From the NCBI GenBank assembly GCA_040771865.1, contig JAXGZF010000006.1, forward strand, positions 1-64,000: a stretch of DNA of 64,000 nucleotides, written 5' to 3'. The notes beneath the pieces are model-generated. The model was not told where the DNA came from. It saw only the letters and a program-made list of their open reading frames with translations, and ran no database searches. Below, in pieces: positions 1,098-10,528 of the stretch. The translations under genes were made by a program, and so were the position numbers. Origin of the DNA: Desulfobacterales bacterium (GTDB lineage: Bacteria > Desulfobacterota > Desulfobacteria > Desulfobacterales > UBA2245). The number at the start of each line of letters is the position of its first letter. Positions within the stretch are counted from its first letter, which is position 1.

Positions 1098-2526
1098 GGG
1101 AGTATTCAAAATTCTGTGTCACGGTTTTTGATTGTCAATCCACCGCCCCATCGAGCGGAAGCGGAAGACAGCTCCGAGAATGGGCCAATTAAAAAGCTCG
1201 TCGGAGGAGCTGTCTTCCGCTGGAGCGGTTTGTAAGAACAAATCTATCAAAGTTTCAAGTCCTTATCCAGTCTTCCCTCAAAAAATATCGCCAACTGAGA
1301 AATGGTCAGTGACCAGTTTTGGATCGGCATCGTCCATTTCTTGCTGGCATTCTGAATCCCCATATACAGCAGTTTCAACAGACTGTCCTGATTTGGAAAA
1401 GCGCCTTTGGTCTTGGTCAGTTTCCGAAACTGACGGTGTACCGCCTCAATGGTGTTGGTTGTATAGATAATCCTTCGAATATCTTCAGGATATTTGAAAT
1501 ACTGACTGAGTCGCTCCCAATTATTCCGCCAGGATGCGATGACAATGGGATACTTCTCATTCCACTTTCCTGCCAGAATATCGAGTTCGGATGCGGCTAA
1601 ATCTTTAGTGCCGGCCTTGTATACGCGTTTCAGGTCGGCCATGAATTCTTTCTGGTTCTTTGAGCCAACGTACTTCAGGGAATTACGGATCTGGTGGACA
1701 ACGCAGAGCTGAATCTCGGTATTCGGAAAAATGGCCTCAATGGCCTCGGGAAAACCTTTAAGGCCGTCAACACAGGCGATCAGGACATCCTTCACGCCCC
1801 GATTCGAAAGATCTGTCAGCACCTGAAGCCAGAAATTGGCCCCTTCATGCTCGGAAATATACAGACCCAGAACTTCCTTCCGCCCCTCAAGGTTGACGCC
1901 GAGGATTGTGTACACCGCCTTGCCGACAACCTTGCCGTTTTCACGGATCTTGTAATGAATGGCATCGAGCCAGACAATCGGATAAATCGATGCCAGGGGC
2001 CGAGCTTGCCATTCTTTGACCGCATGGATAATTTTATCGGTAATGACGCTCAAGGTGCCGGCAGACACCTCAAGACCGTATATCTCCTGAAGATGGGCCG
2101 AGATATCCTGGTAGCTCATACCCAGGCCATAGAGGGCAATTATTTTCTGCTCAATCTCGTCATTCAGGGTAGTCTGATGCTTCTTGACCAACTGGGGAGA
2201 AAAGGTCCCGCCACGGTCCCGGGGGGTACGCAACTCAAAATTGCCATTCAAGGATTTGATGGTCTTCCGGCTTTTCCCATTCCGGCGATTGGCGGTGATT
2301 TCCTGGCCCAGATGCGAATCCAGTTCGCCTTCAAGGGCTGCTTCGGTGAGATTTTTGATTAACGGCGTGAGAATGCCTTCCCTGCCCAGAAGCGGCTTGC
2401 CTTCCTGGATGGCCTTCAGGGCGGTTGAAAAATCAAATTCATGGCCTTCCTGATTCATGTCAGTCCTCCTTGTTTCGCTGACTATATCAGCTTTTGGTTA
2501 ACTGACACAGAATTCTGAACACCCTC
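1098..2526 (-). mobile_element. IS256-family insertion sequence
   Basis: Terminal inverted repeats GGGAGTATTCAAAATTCTGTGTCA (1098-) and revcomp GAGGGTGTTCAGAATTCTGTGTCA (-2526) match 20/24 and enclose a Mutator-type transposase. No target-site duplication visible. Confidence 0.9.
1247..2458 (-). CDS. IS256-family transposase
   Basis: Motifs RNG..., PRDR.G.F.P, WLDA, CVDGLKGF, QLCVVHQIRNS, IYTTNTIE. Confidence 0.96.
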   Translation of the reverse strand: MNQEGHEFDFSTALKAIQEGKPLLGREGILTPLIKNLTEAALEGELDSHLGQEITANRRNGKSRKTIKSLNGNFELRTPRDRGGTFSPQLVKKHQTTLNDEIEQKIIALYGLGMSYQDISAHLQEIYGLEVSAGTLSVITDKIIHAVKEWQARPLASIYPIVWLDAIHYKIRENGKVVGKAVYTILGVNLEGRKEVLGLYISEHEGANFWLQVLTDLSNRGVKDVLIACVDGLKGFPEAIEAIFPNTEIQLCVVHQIRNSLKYVGSKNQKEFMADLKRVYKAGTKDLAASELDILAGKWNEKYPIVIASWRNNWERLSQYFKYPEDIRRIIYTTNTIEAVHRQFRKLTKTKGAFPNQDSLLKLLYMGIQNASKKWTMPIQNWSLTISQLAIFFEGRLDKDLKL

Positions 2527-2607
2527 GAACTGGTCGTCATTCAGGCGGGTCAGGCGATTTCTGGCATCATAGCCGTAGGCATGAACGCCGTCCGAAAGAA
2601 TGTTGAC
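2527..2607 (-). pseudogene. Rhs core remnant truncated by IS256
   Basis: Translates [26 protein letters not shown]. This is 19/26 identical to [26 protein letters not shown] of the main Rhs (6241-6318) and ends exactly at the IS boundary. Confidence 0.85.
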
Positions 2608-2635
2608 GCCCCAAGGCACATGGCCTAGGGGCGTC
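2605..2635. terminator. GC-rich hairpin downstream of the 353-aa gene
   Basis: GACGCCCCAAGGC-acatg-GCCTAGGGGCGTC inverted repeat; no clear U-tract on the minus strand. Confidence 0.4.
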
Positions 2636-2657: not shown

Positions 2658-3719
2658 TTATTGTTCATAATAGCTGTAACGGTTTACCTTCCCTGCTCCA
2701 TTACCTACCAGCAGGACTTCTTCCTTGTGCGGGGGTACTTCAATATTGCAAATTCCGGATGAATACCTCAACATTTCTCGGTAAATGATTTTCTTTTCAG
2801 GTGAAAAAATAAATAGCATTGACTTGCCTGTGTAAGATGCATATTTGACAAGAACCGCTAGACAATTATAATTTTCCGCAAATGCCACTTGGCATCCCTT
2901 GATACCATATATAGCCGTCGGGCTTTCTAAAATTTCATACCGCAATAACTCTTCTCCGTTTAAATCCATCAGAATAATGCTATCAGGGCTAAATGTTAAA
3001 ATATTGATTTGATTCATCCAGATAACAAAATGAATTTCAAGGAGCTTTGTTTTCGATTGCCATTGCCTAATTATTTTTCCGTCCCGATCCCAGAATTTCA
3101 CCATAGAACCATGATTTGCAGTGACTATGTATGAACCGGCATCTGATATTAAAAATTCTACACAACTATAATAATCATCGGCTTTTTTCCAGATTACCTG
3201 GCCATTGTTATCAAGGCACACCAACTCGTTTGCAGCAAGGCAATACTCATTCCTTCCGTCCTTATCTAAATCCCCAAATGCCATACCATTGGCCGAAAGA
3301 TCTTGGCGATAGGTCCATAAAGGCTTACCGAATTTATCCAAAACCCCGTAAGTTGATCCACTGCATACCGCTATTTCAAAATCTCCTGGTTTTTTTATTG
3401 AGATTCTTGGATCCATTATGCCTTCGTGCCATTCATACTCAATCTTTGATTTAACTCTTCCATCTGAGTCTGCGATACATAAGCTCGTTGGCCATAAAAT
3501 CCCTATGTCTTCACCTGGAGAGTCGTCCAATTCTCCCTTTATAATATGAACCGCATAACCGGACTCAGACCTATCGATTAAAAACTGACTTTTTACTATC
3601 GTTTTTCCAGCGTCATATTGCTTTGGAATATCTGAAGAACTTACACCGCCAGAAGACATGAGCAGCAGCATAAAGATTAAAAACCCTATTGTATTTTTCT
3701 TGACAGTTATTCTTATCAT
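2658..3719 (-). CDS. Exported beta-propeller / FG-GAP-like protein (possible orphan immunity protein)
   Basis: N-terminal hydrophobic signal; repeats GELDDSPGED, GDLDKDGRNE, LDKFGKPLW, LDNNGQVIW, WDRDGKIIRQW; AT-rich relative to neighbours. Confidence 0.6.
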   Translation of the reverse strand: MIRITVKKNTIGFLIFMLLLMSSGGVSSSDIPKQYDAGKTIVKSQFLIDRSESGYAVHIIKGELDDSPGEDIGILWPTSLCIADSDGRVKSKIEYEWHEGIMDPRISIKKPGDFEIAVCSGSTYGVLDKFGKPLWTYRQDLSANGMAFGDLDKDGRNEYCLAANELVCLDNNGQVIWKKADDYYSCVEFLISDAGSYIVTANHGSMVKFWDRDGKIIRQWQSKTKLLEIHFVIWMNQINILTFSPDSIILMDLNGEELLRYEILESPTAIYGIKGCQVAFAENYNCLAVLVKYASYTGKSMLFIFSPEKKIIYREMLRYSSGICNIEVPPHKEEVLLVGNGAGKVNRYSYYEQ

Positions 3720-3811
3720 TTCATGGTTTTTTATTCTCCATGTGTTTTGGTTCAGCGTGAATTGGACTTTCGGGTCGTTTGTGATACACCATCACGAACG
3801 GAGGAAAGTCT

Positions 3812-4120
3812 ATGCGAAAAAAGCGTTACAATTACACCCCCGAAGAAAAGGTATTGATTCTCAAGCGTCATCTGGTCGAGCATATGGCGGTATCAGATTT
3901 ATGCGACGAATATCAGCTTCAGCCGAAGGTTTTTTATGAGTGGCAGAAGCGGTTTTTCGAGAACGGCGCTGCTGCGTTCGGCTTTGATAAGCGCAGCCGG
4001 GAACGCGCCGAAGAAGTCCGCATTCAGCAGTTGGAAGACAAGCTGCGCCGCAAGCATGAGGTGCTCTCCGAGCTGATGGAGGAGCACGTAAAGCTAAAAA
4101 AAGAACTTGGGGAGCTTTGA
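3812..4120 (+). CDS. IS3 transposase OrfA (HTH)
   Basis: RYNYTPEEK...FYEW HTH plus leucine-zipper-like tail; A7 run at 4096-4102 phased as an A_AAA_AAA -1 frameshift site. Confidence 0.92.
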   Translation: MRKKRYNYTPEEKVLILKRHLVEHMAVSDLCDEYQLQPKVFYEWQKRFFENGAAAFGFDKRSRERAEEVRIQQLEDKLRRKHEVLSELMEEHVKLKKELGEL

Positions 4121-5127
4121 CCGGCAGCTGGGTTCCCCATGAAATACGCGATGCCGTCGTTGACTTTGTCCGGCAGTGGAGCGAGAAGGCGCATATTGCG
4201 CTCAAATGTTTCATCCGCTGGCTTTCAGTGTCAAAGAGCAAGTTTTACGCCTGGGTCGGACGATACGGGAAAGCCAATGAGCACAACGCTTTGATTCCGC
4301 GGGACTTTTGGCTGGAGCCGTGGGAGCGCGAGGCGATCATCAGGTTCTGCATCGACAATCCTCTTGAAGGGTATCGTCGGTTGACTTTCATGATGCTGGA
4401 CGCCGACATCGTCGCGGTCAGTCCTGCAACCGTCTGGCGGGTGCTTTCAAAAGCAGGGCTTCTGTCCAGGTGGAGCAGGAAGAAAAGTTTGAAAGGAACG
4501 GGTTTCGTCCAGCCGCTGAGGCCGCATGAGCATTGGCACGTGGACATTTCCTATCTCAACATTCACGGAACGTTTTATTATCTGTGCAGCCTTCTGGACG
4601 GATGCAGCCGCTACATCGTTCACTGGGAGATCAGAGAGCAGATGACGGAATCAGACGTGGAAATCATTCTTCAGCGGGCCAGGGAGAAGTTCTCCGAAGC
4701 CCGGCCATCGATCATTTCGGACAACGGGCCGCAGTTTATCGCCAGGGATTTCAAAGAGTTCATCCGCATTTCCGGGATGACGCATGTGAGAACGTCGCCG
4801 TATTATCCGCAGTCCAACGGCAAGATAGAGCGGTTTCACCAGACGATCAAGAATGAATGCATTCGCCCCGGGGTTCCGCTTTCCCTTGACGACGCGAGAA
4901 GAATTGTAGGAAAGTACATCGATCATTACAACGACGTAAGGCTGCACAGCGCCATCGGCTACGTTTCTCCGGCCGACAAACTGAACGGCCGGGACCAGGA
5001 GATTTTCAAAGAGCGAGACAGAAAACTCGAAGAAGCGCGAAAACTCAGAAAACAAAACCGACGAAAAGCTTTCCCTGGATTCCATATTCCAGGGAAAGAG
5101 GATATTCCACTAACTCAAACAGCATGA
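4117..5127 (+). CDS. IS3 transposase OrfB (DDE integrase core), -1 frame to OrfA
   Basis: GYRR, WHVDISY, SDNGPQF, PQSNGKIERF, YNDVRLHSAIGY. Confidence 0.95.
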   Translation: MTGSWVPHEIRDAVVDFVRQWSEKAHIALKCFIRWLSVSKSKFYAWVGRYGKANEHNALIPRDFWLEPWEREAIIRFCIDNPLEGYRRLTFMMLDADIVAVSPATVWRVLSKAGLLSRWSRKKSLKGTGFVQPLRPHEHWHVDISYLNIHGTFYYLCSLLDGCSRYIVHWEIREQMTESDVEIILQRAREKFSEARPSIISDNGPQFIARDFKEFIRISGMTHVRTSPYYPQSNGKIERFHQTIKNECIRPGVPLSLDDARRIVGKYIDHYNDVRLHSAIGYVSPADKLNGRDQEIFKERDRKLEEARKLRKQNRRKAFPGFHIPGKEDIPLTQTA

Positions 5128-5203
5128 AAGTCCATTTCCGACTGAGGCGGAACACATGTACACAGGTGGTCCCATCGGAGCCAACAGAGCAACGCCTCTT
5201 TAT

Positions 5204-5380
5204 TTACTTTTCCTGTTTCTCCTGCCCTATATCCTGATATTCACAGATGCCTTTCTCGTAGTTCCAACGGCCGCCGTTATCTAAACATTTATCGATATCT
5301 AAACATCCCTTCATCCAAAATGCAAAAGCGATCACTAATAGCACCGCTACAGACAGGAGAAATTTTTTCTTCTTATTCAT
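5204..5380 (-). CDS. 58-aa membrane-anchored protein, candidate Rhs immunity protein
   Basis: Not in the ORF track. MNKKKKFLLSVAVLLVIAFAFWMKGCLDIDKCLDNGGRWNYEKGICEYQDIGQEKQEK*; its ATG is 2 nt after the Rhs stop. Confidence 0.8.
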   Translation of the reverse strand: MNKKKKFLLSVAVLLVIAFAFWMKGCLDIDKCLDNGGRWNYEKGICEYQDIGQEKQEK

Positions 5381-5382
5381 GA

Positions 5383-8300
5383 TTAATACCTCGGATTAAG
5401 ACTATTAGGTCGTAATGATCTACACACTTGGCTGCAAGGTGCGTTGGGATCACCATTTCTTCCTTGTTTATTAGCTTCCCTGTCTTTATCACATTCAGAT
5501 CGCGAATCTCTTTTGACATGCTCATCAAATTGCTCACGAACTTCTCCAATTAATTCTGATGCATCCCTACCGCCAACCCCCCGTCTTGATGCTTCACAAT
5601 GTCCCATGCAGTGGAAATACTTGTCTGCACCGATTGTATTGGCATCACGCATATTGCGGTAATTGCGATACAAGTCGTCAGCTCCAATAAAGAAATCGCG
5701 CCAGTAAGTATACGGGTTTACCCATTCGAACAATCCATAAGGATCTATCCGGTTAACTGAATCATTGAGGACATATGCGTAGTGGTTTATTCCTCCTGGC
5801 ATTTCTATTGGATCCGGCCTCAGGTATCTTCCGATATTCGGGTCATAATACCGATGCCAGTTGTAATGCAGTCCGCTCTCCTGATCGAAGTACTGTCCGG
5901 GAAACCTCAGGTTATATTCAAAGCTCACCCCGTCGCCGTCCGGGTCTTCATCGGGAGGCAGGGTTCCAAAGGGATCAAGGTTCCATTTCCAGACCGTGGT
6001 TCCATTGGCATTCTCGATGAGCCGGGGCGTGTTGAGATGATCGGCGTAGATGTAATGGACGCTGCCGGAAGCGACAACCGCGACGGGAATATTGCCCAGC
6101 CAGACGGTTTCACGAATCGCGTTTCCGGATGCATCGTACTCGCCGATCAACTGACCGCCTTCATCGTATGTAAAATATACGGCCGGTTCAGACAAGGATT
6201 CTTTGCATGCGCGCAAACCCTGGGCATTGATCCGGTACGTGAACTGGCCGTTGTCCAGACTGGTCAGACGGTTTCTGGCGTCGTAGCCGTAGACGTTAAC
6301 GCCGTCTGAAATGATGTTGCCCACCGCGTCGTAAGCGTAATTCTTCGCTGCCGGTCCGTCAACGGACAACAGCCGGTTGGTTCCCTCGACATAGGCGTAA
6401 GGGTAACTGACACCGGATTCAGTAAAACTCGTCCGGTTGCCGTTTTTATCATACGCAAAGCCCTGGTCCAGATTGGTTCCGTAAGCGCGGGTCAGGCTGC
6501 TTGAAGCGTCGTACTCAAAGCTGTAAGACGCCTGGGCGTCGCCGAGGCCGGAAATCCGGTTGGCCGGATCGTATTCAATGCTCCGGGTCAAACCGCCAAG
6601 GCTGTGCTGGGACATCCGGGCGTCCAGGTCGTATGCTCTCGAATAGACTCCTCCGTTTCCAAAGGTCCAGCCGCTCACCGGGCCAAAGGCAACATGCCTG
6701 ACGTCGCTGGCCAGCGGCTGGCCGTTGAGCGTCAGACCAGCGATCCGGCCGTTGACATAGGACAGATTGACAACAGCGCCGGAAGGATAGGTCATGCTTG
6801 AAAGCCGACCGAATGCGTCGTATCCGTACCCGGTGATCAAAACAAGACCGCCGGTTTCCTGACGCTTTTCCACGATTCTGCCGTGAAGGTCATAAGACCA
6901 GCGGACCATTCCGCTTGCATCCGCAATCGAACTCAGGCGGCCTAAGGCGTTTTGCCCATCGTCGTAGACGTACGTCTCGACGGTTCCGTCGGCGTAGGTT
7001 GCCCTGGTTAAACGGTTCAGCGCATCATAGGCGTATGTGGTCGCATGATTGTTGGCGTCGGTTGCCGTGTGCAGATTGCCGGCTTCGTCATACTCGTAGT
7101 ATGTAATTCCAGTATCCGGACTTGACTGCTGAATCAAATCGCCCAGTCCGTTGTACAGGAAAGTTGTGGCAAGCCCCTTGGGGTCTTCTACGCGGGTGAT
7201 GTTGTCCTGAGCGTCATACCCGTATCGGGTGACGCCCGACATCGGATCCGTGGTCTGAGCCAAGCGGTTCAAGGCGTCAAAACCGTGAACGACGGTATGG
7301 GTCAGCCCGTCGGTTGCGCTGGTCCGGTTGCCGTTGGCGTCGTAGCCGTAAACAGCGATCGTCTGGCCCTGAGCGCCAAGCGCATCGGTCATCCGGCCCA
7401 ATTCGTTGAACACCCAGTCTCGGGCGCGAACCAGAACGCCGTTCGGATCAAAGATATTCTGACCGGTGATATTGCCGACGCTGTCCAGCGCGTATGAGAT
7501 GCGATTGCCCGATGCGTCTGAAATCCCGGTAAGCCTGTGGGCGTCATCGTATTGATAGTCCAGAAAAGACCCATCCGGCATGGTGATTCGCGTCAGGTTC
7601 CCCGCGCCGTCATAAACAAAGCCGGTGGTTTCTCCGCCGATGTTCCGGGAAATCAGGCGGCCTATCTCATCGTAGGTCAGATCGCTGACCAGACCGTTGG
7701 GATCCACGATTTGAAGCGGACGGCCGTGATCGTCGTAAACCGGCATTTCAGAAACATGGCCCAGGGCGTTTTCCACGGAAATCAGGTTTCCTGAATTGTC
7801 GTCATATTCATAAGTCGTAATGTCCGCAACGTCGGTCCGCGGCCCGTCCGCCGAGATGCGCAAGCCCAGATCGTTGTAAGCGTAGGTCCATGTGCGCGAT
7901 TTGCCGTTCGCCGCGTCGGTTACAGAGTGCTGCGTCAAAAGTCCTCTATCGTCGTATGTAAAGCTTGTTGTCCTGCCGGGCTCTGTAATCAACACCGGCA
8001 ACCTGAAATCCGGATGCCATTCAGTGGCGATGGTGCGCTCTTCCGGGGCGTCCACCGCCTCGGTGCGAGAGGTCTGAAGCCCGCGGTCGTTGTACTCGAA
8101 AACGCTCTTGTTTCCGCTAAAGTCCGTGCGGCTGATCAAAAATCCCCGATCATCATAAGCCGATTCGCTGAACTGACTGCCGCAGTTCGAACATCCGGCC
8201 ACATCCATCGAGGTGGTCTTGGCAACCCCCTGAACCACCGTATAGGCGAAATTTTTTTCGGATCCCAGGGAATCCAAAATCGTGCTGAGGCCCTTGTATT

Positions 8301-9897
8301 TGTAATCGATCGTTACTTTTTCCGCACCGCCGGCGTGTTCGCTCGAAACGGCTCGGCCCTGATCATCGTAGGTCCAGGTGGCAAAACGGATGCTGTTTTC
8401 ATCGATAATCCCGGTCAGGGCGTTGGGATAAGCGGGGTTTTCGTAGAGATAGGTCCGGGTTTTCAAATCCGGTTTTGTCACTCCGGTCAGGCGGTTGTTT
8501 GCATCATAGGCGTAAGTGTAAAGGCCGCCGGCGGGGTCTCTCATGGTTTGAATGCGTCCGTCGGCGCTCCAGGCAAACACGAGGTTTCGGCCGAACGGGT
8601 CGGTTACGGAAACAAGCCTTCCCGAATCATCATAGCTTAGCGTCTGCAAGAGACCGGCCCGGTTGGAAATGGACGCAAGCCGCCCATTCGCATCGTAGAT
8701 TTCAACAAAATCTTCGGATGTTGTATATCGCCAGCCGTTCGCGGTCTGTTCCAGGCGGTCGGCGACGTCCGGATCGCCAACCCACTTCTTGCGGCTGAGT
8801 TTGAACCTGTATTCCTTTCCGTCCGGACGGTAGGCGACCGTTTCCTTGCTGTTCACCTTGGAAATCGATCGGTCGTAACTGCCGCGCCAGTTCGCCCCCA
8901 GAGCGCCTGAATACGTCGAAACGCTGTTGTAGTGGCGTTTGAACTCCAGGGGAAACACCCCGGCGCCAGAGTAATCGGTTTCGACCTGATATTTGTTGCC
9001 GATTGCGGCGTGAATCGGATTGCCAGATCGAGGCGCTTCGCAGTCGGGATCTCCGGTATTCTTTCCGATCTGGATCTCTTCACCGCCGACCGTTATGGCA
9101 AAATCGACCTGATCGCCGGGCGCGGCGATCGAGGTTGCGGAAATCAAGTAGGCCCCGGCTTTGCTCCCCCCTGTAAAATACGCCGAAGCCACCCCGTTCG
9201 CATCGGTTGCGGCTGTAATCGATGGTGATCCTGGGGCATCAACAACTGCGGCAAGCCCGGCCTTTGCGCCGTCCGGCTTCTGGGTAAGGGTGAAAACCAC
9301 CGGTTCGCCTGCAAACGGCGTGACCCCGTCCGGATACAGCAGCTGGGCCTGCAAAGGCTGAGTCGAGGAAGTCTTGAGCGCGATGATCTGGTTGTCCCCG
9401 GAATATTTCTTGAATATCAGGGGAACCAGCTCAAATGGCTCAACAATCACGCCGTTTCTATTGAGACATTCAACAAGCCAGGAGCCAGGCGTCTCGTAGT
9501 TAAAGGAAGCAGCCACCTCCCAGATTACATCGTCGAGAAAAGGATGGTCCGCATCGCCGCAGGTCAGCGATCCATTTGTAGAAACCCAGCAATCCGTGTC
9601 GTAATCATATGTTAGAGAACTTGCACCCTTGATGGTGCCATCGGGTCGAATCCAGCGCCAGGTTAATTTTTCGCCGTCCTGCGCATCGTAAATTTCAACC
9701 TCCAGACCCACCATGCCATCTGTTATGTAGACCTGCCCGCCAGTCTGAAAGACGGATTGTCCGTTGTCGGGAAAATCCGCTCGGGTTTCATAACGGTACA
9801 GCCCCCGGGAGAACGCCGAAAAGGCGAAAACCCAGGAACCAGTAAAAATGACAATACACACGATCGCAACAGCCGAAAGCAGGCGTCTCCAACTCAT
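5383..9897 (-). CDS. Rhs/YD-repeat polymorphic toxin with signal peptide, Ig-like domain, DUF6531 and SAA-like C-terminal domain
   Basis: Start MSWRR after an AAGGAGAGG RBS; Sec-type signal; SGDNQ...TDANGVA Ig-like segment; GNPI...FKRHYNS; many YD repeats; core [25 protein letters not shown]...DPYGL; 115-aa tip. Confidence 0.95.
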   Translation of the reverse strand: [1504 protein letters not shown]

Positions 9898-10528
9898 GGA
9901 ATCCTCTCCTTTTTCAGATTGTTTTTCTGATCGTTCTGGATTCAAGTATTTTTATACGGGCGGTTCTTTCAATCTTCTCCCAATTCAGCTCTGGTCGAGT
10001 CATATCTTCAGGCGCTTCAGTACGCGGCGCCCTTCCCTCGCATGGACTTTGTTTCAACAGCCGATCGCAAAACCGGCATTTTCGAAACAATTATTGCATT
10101 CGAACGAGACATGCGACGGTGAACGCCGCTGTTTTGTTTGAGCAAGTCACTCGAATCGTGCAGAGCATCAGGTGCAAGAACGTGAGCCTGAATTCACCCT
10201 CGATTTCCGGAAATCCTCACGATTATTCCGAAGAGAGTTGAATTCTTGATTTTTTCACGCCGCGGAAGGAACTGGCAGGCGCATGGTCGAACAATTCAAG
10301 AGCGGGAATTTCTGTGGTGCGAATTAAAAAATACTTTTAGCGAAATTGTTGGGGTTCGTAAAGAAAAAATTTCGCCGAGATTCATTTTTTGCGAATTTTG
10401 TTGCAACGACTCCGATCTTCGGCTTGATCTGTTTTCAAGATGGTTCGAGGTCGAACCTGGTTAACCAATTGATATTGATCGATAAGTATTGAGAACACCG
10501 CCCGGAATCGGGTTCGACAAAGCGGAAA

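Follow-up and report, generated by a model that had tools for sequence, protein, structure and literature searches.

A conserved 58-residue membrane-anchored protein encoded directly behind an SAA-type Rhs tip is a candidate minimal immunity protein

What is encoded by the short open reading frame (ORF) that directly follows an Rhs gene in a Desulfobacterales genome, and what has it to do with the toxin tip at the end of that gene? The question is raised by the window analyzed here, the whole stretch of 64,000 nucleotides (nt) at positions 1 to 64,000 of contig JAXGZF010000006.1 (assembly GCA_040771865.1), in which a 1520-residue Rhs protein with a serum amyloid A (SAA)-type tip is encoded on the minus strand and is followed on the same strand by an ORF of 58 amino acids (aa) at 5204..5380, stop codon included. 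In the initial annotation this ORF, described there as absent from the gene track, had been proposed as a membrane-anchored immunity gene for the tip. Our computational analysis led to the same answer: the 58-aa protein (P0001, hereafter the mini-protein) is probably the cognate immunity protein of the SAA-type Rhs tip, and it would block the enzyme at the outer face of the inner membrane.

The position of the mini-gene was determined from the ORF list, its translation and its homologues, and it agreed with the earlier description of an ORF beginning 2 nt past the Rhs stop. The start codon ATG lies at 5380-5378 and the stop codon at 5206-5204 of the minus strand, and the spacer to the TAA of the Rhs gene (5385-5383) consists of bases 5382-5381 only. 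A Shine-Dalgarno-like GAGG, which may direct ribosomes to the mini-gene, is located 8 nt upstream of the ATG (5389..5392, minus strand) within the final Rhs codons, and the 58-aa gene would be translationally coupled to the Rhs gene. The basic N-terminus, the hydrophobic helix and the cysteine-bearing stretch that had been noticed earlier were all recovered in the translation. The N-terminal MNKKKK has a net charge of +4 and stands in front of a hydrophobic membrane anchor of codons 7-23 (5312..5362, minus strand), which was delimited by hydropathy, charge and the helix of an AlphaFold2 model; the Kyte-Doolittle 15-mer peak was 3.02 at residues 7-21. Codons 24-47 (5240..5311, minus strand) form a conserved extracytoplasmic module, composed of the end of the helix and a beta-hairpin with Cys32 and Cys46, as seen in a 27-sequence alignment and in the strands of the model. 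The last part, codons 48-58 (5207..5239, minus strand), is a variable acidic or polar tail, which was unconserved in both alignments and reached a predicted local distance difference test score (pLDDT) of about 50 in the last block. The mini-protein contains three cysteines in all, and the guanine-plus-cytosine (GC) content of the mini-gene is 39%.

The 58-aa ORF is a real, conserved gene. Five metagenomic homologues with 64-76% identity were obtained by a word-indexed protein search, and pattern scans revealed 30 loci, 27 in contigs from a one-genome-per-species collection and 3 in metagenome contigs, with record titles naming Desulfobulbus, Geobacterales, Syntrophorhabdaceae, Nitrospirota, Acidobacteriota, Bacteroidota, Alpha- and Gammaproteobacteria, and others. 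When the family profile was used for an exhaustive search of 1.84 billion representatives, 2221 clusters were matched at an expectation (E) value ≤0.001 and 97 at E ≤1e-10. Among the 150 best profile matches, the core D-x-C-[LIVMF]-[DENS]-x-G-[GNRSAK] was present in 149, and in all 150 when the last position was disregarded; a hydrophobic 15-mer was located just upstream of the core in all 150, and most of these proteins were 46-90 aa long. From the motif to the end, the 149 motif-bearing matches contained two cysteines in 112 cases, three in 14 and four in 18, the four-cysteine group including tandem duplications of the module (P0007 and P0030, for example). In the 27-sequence alignment, A2, D30, C32, L33, D34 and G36 were invariant, and K31, G37, W39 and C46 were conserved in at least 90%. 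No Pfam family was found for P0001, and three single-member matches at chance level were obtained among 27 family members; the NCBIfam search returned a sub-threshold MgrB match only, the PDB sequences gave 0 matches at E ≤1, a Foldseek comparison of the model with the PDB gave nothing at E ≤0.001, and the best ESM Atlas score was 0.84, under the lead level of 0.9. Tandem hairpin duplications or C-terminal extensions were also observed as variants of the family (P0007, P0013, P0014, P0030, P0020, P0043, P0048, P0095, P0107, L010 and L029), and the extended members, with total lengths of 124-282 aa, carried an extension of unrecognised fold. Among the best profile matches, some had long C-terminal extensions of 184-282 aa.

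The partner upstream is the tip of the Rhs protein. The Rhs gene (5383..9945, minus strand) encodes an N-terminal hydrophobic segment followed by DUF6531, RHS repeats and the SAA-type tip, with Pfam E values of 1.5e-18 for DUF6531, 5.9e-91 for RHS_repeat and 3.9e-26 for SAA. The tip, Rhs residues 1414-1520 (5386..5706, minus strand), was identified by PF00277, a genome search and an alignment of nine tips. It matched positions 3-102 of the 102 in the PF00277 model with 91.9 bits against a cut-off of 30.8, which fully bore out its earlier description as SAA-like, and it was the sole PF00277 match in its genome. The Rhs core ends ahead of the tip with DPYGL (residues 1401-1405; 5731..5745, minus strand), which was located in the translation and which we take to be the usual Rhs self-cleavage site. 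In the alignment of nine tips, DKYFHC, RE, one D, D83, A-N-x-x-G and four cysteines (C-x3-C twice) were invariant, and the tip of the window carries A-N-K-Q-G-R. Vertebrate serum amyloid A belongs to the same Pfam family, the bacterial tip matching the whole model, and the bacterial tips differ by their four invariant cysteines and their Rhs carrier; vertebrate SAA is, to our knowledge, without these four cysteines.

Bacterial SAA domains (prok-SAA) have been placed in the Lipocone superfamily, among the tips of polymorphic toxins, by Burroughs, Nicastro and Aravind (eLife 2025, PMC12419801, cited throughout from the accessible part of the article and its files). In that work, the ancestral active site of the SAA-Wnt clade was inferred to consist of His in H2, Glu in H3 and Asp in H4 together with an sNxxGR motif (PMC12419801). 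All of these features were found in the tip of the window, in DKYFHC, RE, D83 and A-N-K-Q-G-R respectively, and it is therefore predicted to be an active member of prok-SAA. The four invariant cysteines, judged from the alignment, would fit folding in an oxidising compartment. Since the tip keeps both the predicted catalytic His, Glu and Asp and these cysteines, it is most likely an extracytoplasmic enzyme. No match to the tip was found by tblastn in 72,556 plasmid records. PF00277 has been reported in 7 PAAR-Rhs proteins of E. coli O157:H7 at e ≤0.01 (PMC7216683, 2020, likewise cited from its accessible part). E. coli O157:H7 was considered as a tractable example of an SAA tip and was dropped, the Sakai chromosome having no PF00277 match at E ≤0.001.

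The linkage between the mini-gene and the SAA tip was measured from both sides. Starting from the mini-gene, tblastn with the tip of the window detected an SAA tip directly upstream in 9 of the 30 loci, near-complete in seven (L002, L004, L005, L006, L011, L019 and L021) and as a C-terminal fragment in two (L003 and L013). The gap from the tip stop to the mini-gene start was 1-11 nt in eight other intact cassettes (the seven with near-complete tips and L033). Starting from the tip, PF00277 proved to be rare, with matches in 3 of 401 sampled genomes of the window's phylum (its own genome counted) and in 2 of the 400 genomes scored from a second class, to which Rheinheimera genome G413 belongs; these counts, as well as those for the family profile below, are lower bounds from samples which include kin and are not independent trials. 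A family member was located directly downstream of four of the five tips found via PF00277 alone (G000, G045, G152 and G437), the G437 copy being a lipoprotein form at the same locus as L011. The family profile matched 5 of the 401 genomes of the window's phylum, and the three intact copies were exactly the three that adjoin SAA tips. The remaining two matches were a copy with three in-frame stops, one of them replacing Cys32 (G093), and a weak match without the second cysteine (G200). In the second class, the G437 copy was SAA-linked and G413 was the seed genome, and G658 (L050/L063) held two neighbouring copies within an Rhs locus, each with an in-frame stop, one of which follows a 17-residue remnant of an SAA tip tail that was weak at E 0.22. 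Pairwise identities of tips and of mini-proteins were correlated (r=0.68 over 36 non-independent pairs from 9 cassettes), which, at the level of sequence comparison, shows co-inheritance and not co-evolution.

The tight coupling that had been claimed for the pair was supported by the short gaps in the eight intact cassettes, and the composition of the DNA showed the pair to travel together. The tip and the mini-gene make up a low-GC cassette at 5204..5850 (minus strand), recognized by the GC profile and by contig divergence. The GC content was 38-47% in the cassette, compared with 53-65% in profile windows centred above about 5900, and the fall starts near 5850; as averages, 43.7% was obtained for the tip, 55.5% for the Rhs core and 50.8% for the window. 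Contigs of related populations from other metagenomes (X17 and X18) matched the Rhs core between positions 6400 and 5810 and ran on into unrelated sequence beyond, which is what replacement of the tip would give. The place near 5810, where the GC content also falls and which is about 22 codons ahead of DPYGL, would be a natural site for the recombination that exchanges tips. On the other side of the pair, the sequence 3' of the mini-gene varied with the SAA locus, with an orphan Rhs fragment in L002, L004, L005, L019 and L021 and a transposase in L011. The mini-gene was the single gene separating the tip from these neighbours, which differed in every SAA locus, and it is thus the one partner that stays with the tip.

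Based on the 27-sequence alignment, an AlphaFold2 model of the mini-protein was obtained with a mean pLDDT of 84.4, in which a helix of residues 3-34 is followed by strands at 38-40 and 45-47. The conserved motif accordingly extends from the last part of the anchor helix across a single hairpin. In this model C32, at the end of the helix, and C46, in the second strand, appear well placed for a disulfide. In some relatives the plain anchor is replaced by a canonical lipobox, namely in L011 and L031 and in 4 of the 150 best profile matches (P0031, P0070, P0140 and P0149). With either type of anchor the module comes to lie on the periplasmic side; the periplasm-facing topology that had been proposed from the positive-inside N-terminus was supported by this exchange of anchors.

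Taken together, a simple mechanism can be proposed. The mini-protein would be a bitopic inner-membrane protein with its N-terminus inside and its C-terminus outside, and about 25 of its residues would lie in the periplasm, made up of the final helical turns of the anchor and a single beta-hairpin, with a Cys32-Cys46 disulfide probably holding them together. For the Lipocone toxins, cleavage of the head groups of lipids or lipid carriers outside the cytoplasm has been predicted by analogy with the action of TelC on lipid II, and their immunity proteins were all described as transmembrane (TM) proteins or lipoproteins with predicted periplasmic action (PMC12419801). The targets proposed for the present tip would be the same as those published for prok-SAA, the head groups of membrane lipids or lipid carriers. 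The immunity module would be held at the same membrane surface, where it would protect the producing cell by blocking the toxin, probably through binding to its conserved pocket.

Several results weigh against this immunity reading. No SAA tip was found upstream of the mini-gene in 21 of the 30 loci, and PF00277 was absent at E ≤0.001 from 14 of the 15 genomes of unlinked loci that were searched (the genomes of L026, L027, L028 and L031 were left out); the expected linkage of homologues to SAA tips thus held for the close relatives and failed for most of the distant ones. The exception was G415, a small alphaproteobacterial metagenome-assembled genome with three stand-alone SAA proteins elsewhere in the genome. 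Three of the 21 unlinked copies lay in Rhs loci without an SAA tip (L018 and L024 by Pfam, L023 by its likeness to L024), three were uninformative (L028, with a 15-residue match, and L029 and L030, on 1.2-kilobase contigs), and 15 stood in unrelated settings, such as behind metH, fliP (L009) or miaA (L007). In the second class, the family profile matched 13 of 401 genomes, an SAA domain was present in only 2 genomes of the sample, and no toxin-related Pfam family was detected within about 1.5 kilobases of the copy in 10 genomes of this class (12 places), a scan of 55 of the 63 ORFs that omitted those of L051, already known, and of L063, a duplicate of L050. The fifth SAA tip found via PF00277 (G778, L038, minus strand, about 993-2118) precedes a different membrane-anchored protein of about 200 aa. 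The core motif is conserved across phyla unusually well for an immunity protein, and the disulfide is suggested by conservation and model topology. From four RNA-labelled runs over 5100-6400, one 193-nt metatranscriptome contig (X19, depth 2.3) overlapped the ORF, and it covered only the last 52 nt (5204-5255) before continuing into the end of an insertion sequence (IS); the other contigs (X17, X18 and X20) matched the Rhs core or the IS only and not the mini-gene. Strand and level are not readable from such contigs and DNA carry-over is possible, so they are unusable as expression evidence.

A group of copies in Acidobacteriota belongs to the same side of the balance. Three copies (L008, L012 and L015; about 4001-4147) were located directly behind metH, the gene of B12-dependent methionine synthase; in L008 and L012 the start of the copy and the stop of metH share 1 nt, and in L015 the copy lies just past the metH stop, with no in-frame start codon ahead of its hydrophobic segment. 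These genomes had no SAA domain, and the placement is unexplained if the role of the family is immunity only. As a separate observation, the protein of about 200 aa in L038 is without the D-K-C-L-D motif and may represent a second immunity family for prok-SAA tips.

These results could be accommodated if the family were a general small envelope protein, a regulator or protector in the style of MgrB and PhoQ, whose place behind SAA tips came from secondary recruitment or hitch-hiking. The number of clusters, the solitary position, in housekeeping settings, of most members sampled beyond the window's phylum, the 14 SAA-free genomes, the repeated position behind metH and the weak architectural match to MgrB would all fit such a role. 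We nevertheless regarded this main rival as unlikely. The MgrB match was far under the 40-bit cut-off, and the gene stood behind four of five independently found SAA tips, although each of the two features occurs in only about 1-3% or less of the sampled genomes. In addition, orphan copies were found in Rhs loci and annotated immunity islands, and such copies decay (G093 and G658).

The orphan copies themselves deserve description. Orphan immunity genes are known to cluster in the immunity islands of polymorphic toxin systems. Copies of the present family were found in Rhs arrays or immunity islands in L013, L018, L024 and L050 and in the plasmid islands L047 and L048, and by tblastn family members were detected in five annotated plasmid records. 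The island around the copy on an Alteromonas mediterranea plasmid carries genes annotated as 'polymorphic toxin type 10 domain-containing protein', as 'Imm27 family immunity protein' and as a HEPN protein. This copy had no feature in the gene table of the collection, which describes itself as incomplete; therefore, surveys based on annotated proteins may undercount such mini-genes. On a Thiodictyon plasmid (L048, 4007-4528), an ORF begins with the module and continues in frame into a gene annotated as an ankyrin-repeat protein, through fusion or because the start of that gene was mis-called; the neighbours are a 'MafI family immunity protein' and DUF1493.

An alternative concerning the form of the protein leaves the immunity role unchanged. 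The mini-protein could be a secreted lipoprotein, cleaved before Cys26 (W-M-K-G|C) to give a lipid-anchored peptide of 33 residues. Cys26 lies just past the hydrophobic stretch, the closest relatives retain KGC, and true lipobox forms occur within the family in the members named above (L011, L031, P0031, P0070, P0140 and P0149). Judged by the lipobox consensus pattern, however, M-K-G-C, which has Lys at -2, is a poor and non-canonical lipobox; the SAA-linked L003, L004, L005 and L006 have Y, W or Q in place of Cys26, and the model shows one unbroken helix of residues 3-34. The poor lipobox and the unconserved Cys26 therefore favoured an uncleaved membrane anchor, and cleavage of the window's protein seems quite improbable.

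A role as an accessory factor of the toxin, in folding, disulfide formation, export or activation of the tip, would explain the tight coupling and the co-inheritance with the tip equally well. It would leave the orphans in toxin-free genomes and the copies within immunity-gene islands unexpected, and no likeness to a known Rhs chaperone family was detected in Pfam or NCBIfam; we gave this role very little weight. That the ORF arose by chance in an AT-rich spacer, as its short length and 39% GC might suggest, was already refuted by the conservation of the protein across many phyla despite divergent DNA, with invariant Cys, Asp, Gly and Trp positions.

Given an immunity role, cross-protection would be possible because both partners are strongly conserved, and this would explain the many stand-alone copies in toxin-free genomes. 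A bolder form of the idea, which we consider doubtful and offer as speculation, is that the D-K-C-L-D-x-G-G-x-W hairpin acts as a near-universal, cross-protective, disulfide-clamped plug of about 25 residues for the catalytic pocket of SAA-type Lipocone domains. If this were true, the conservation of the partners and the existence of more than 2000 clusters, mostly stand-alone, would be explained as a broad defence against the SAA toxins of neighbours. The module would then be among the smallest natural immunity domains known and a ready probe or inhibitor for the SAA fold, possibly for animal SAA as well. The pair is compact, with a tip of 115 residues and a partner of 58 residues of which about 35 are soluble, and it thus lends itself to studies of how SAA-fold enzymes act on the bacterial envelope. 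Such knowledge would also be relevant to animal serum amyloid A, whose function has long been unclear.

The surroundings of the cassette in the window were also characterized. Downstream of the mini-gene lies an IS3-family element (3739-5158) with 48-nt imperfect inverted repeats at 3739-3786 and 5111-5158, whose orfA matched HTH_Tnp_1 and whose orfB matched rve. The element ends 45 nt beyond the mini-gene stop, so the ORF is intact, and the tail of the mini-protein resembles the tails of its closest relatives. Its other end is about 20 nt from the start of a 353-aa ORF, and by this placement the region downstream of the cassette is split. The 353-aa protein (2658..3719, minus strand) has a signal-like N-terminus and sub-threshold beta-propeller Pfam matches only. 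The possibility that it is the true immunity gene of the cassette, or an additional one, was rejected, no homologue being found in the other loci and the IS intervening; it may instead stem from a displaced cassette, in which it would have served immunity or an accessory function. Further along, a 45-aa Rhs-repeat fragment (2482-2619, minus strand) resembles the Rhs core near its end, and an IS256/Mutator-family transposase gene (1247-2458, minus strand; PF00872, E 4e-102) abuts it; the fragment is probably an orphan remnant cut off by this transposase gene. On the upstream side, the Rhs gene does not adjoin type VI secretion genes, the next gene encoding a DinG-like helicase (Helicase_C_2; window 9945 to about 13200). 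By Pfam, no PAAR match accompanied the hydrophobic N-terminal segment and DUF6531 of the Rhs protein.

How does the mini-protein compare with known systems? Membrane-anchored, cysteine-stabilised periplasmic immunity for prok-SAA toxins was already predicted in print in 2025, where the network file contains a node 'Imm-SAA' of 53 loci, with 2 fragments and 1 variant label, and where immunity domain (iii) is described as a helix followed by four beta-strands with four absolutely conserved cysteines (PMC12419801). The protein of the window shares with Imm-SAA or domain (iii), as far as the accessible description goes, the coupling to prok-SAA, an anchor by a TM segment or lipid, stabilisation by cysteines, the order of helix then strands and the predicted periplasmic location. 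It differs in that it is modelled with two strands instead of four, and only C32 and C46 are conserved in its family instead of four cysteines. The motif C-L-D-N-G-G was not found in the text-readable supplements of that paper, which carry no Imm-SAA sequences.

A likely bridge between the two forms was found in G415, where the gene of P0157 (124 aa) follows that of a stand-alone SAA protein at a distance of about 320 nt, a single small ORF lying in the interval. P0157 was aligned with the family profile by hhalign at a probability of 97% and E 3.9e-11. It has four cysteines in its first 60 residues, and its model (pLDDT 75.4), with a helix of residues 2-32 and strands at 36-38, 43-45, 48-50 and 57-59, fits the published description of the Imm-SAA domain as available. 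These results suggested that the protein of the window is probably a minimal, two-cysteine, one-hairpin form of the published domain, the two families being compared by description only; among the best profile matches, the two-cysteine form was commoner than the four-cysteine form. A multi-TM protein downstream of the SAA protein in L034 reached an hhalign probability of only 1.6% with the family, and the same C-L-x-x-G...C spacing was visible in it. In the full-text literature on prok-SAA toxins and their immunity, computational work only was found, and no bench work on either partner.

Outside the toxin systems, the nearest likeness in size and plan is MgrB of enterobacteria, whose basic N-terminus leads into a single membrane helix and a short periplasmic segment; two functionally important cysteines lie in this segment, which binds the periplasmic domain of PhoQ. 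The match of the mini-protein to the MgrB model (NF007635) reached E 0.0054 and 16.9 bits, below the curated cut-off of 40; MgrB is without the D-K-C-L-D-x-G-G motif, has another partner and shows no linkage to toxins. Closer in function is the TelC-TipC pair of Streptococcus intermedius, described as the only experimentally studied Lipocone toxin and immunity pair, in which extracytoplasmic lipid II is cleaved by TelC and the toxin is counteracted by TipC on the outward-facing side of the membrane (PMC12419801). The logic proposed here is the same, with a different Lipocone family, secretion route and carrier protein. Compared with the 58-aa protein, TipC is much larger and of an unrelated fold. 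To the immunity predicted for prok-SAA toxins, our work adds a very small and probably minimal immunity module, a linkage quantified from both the toxin and the immunity side, and wide carriage of the module as an orphan.

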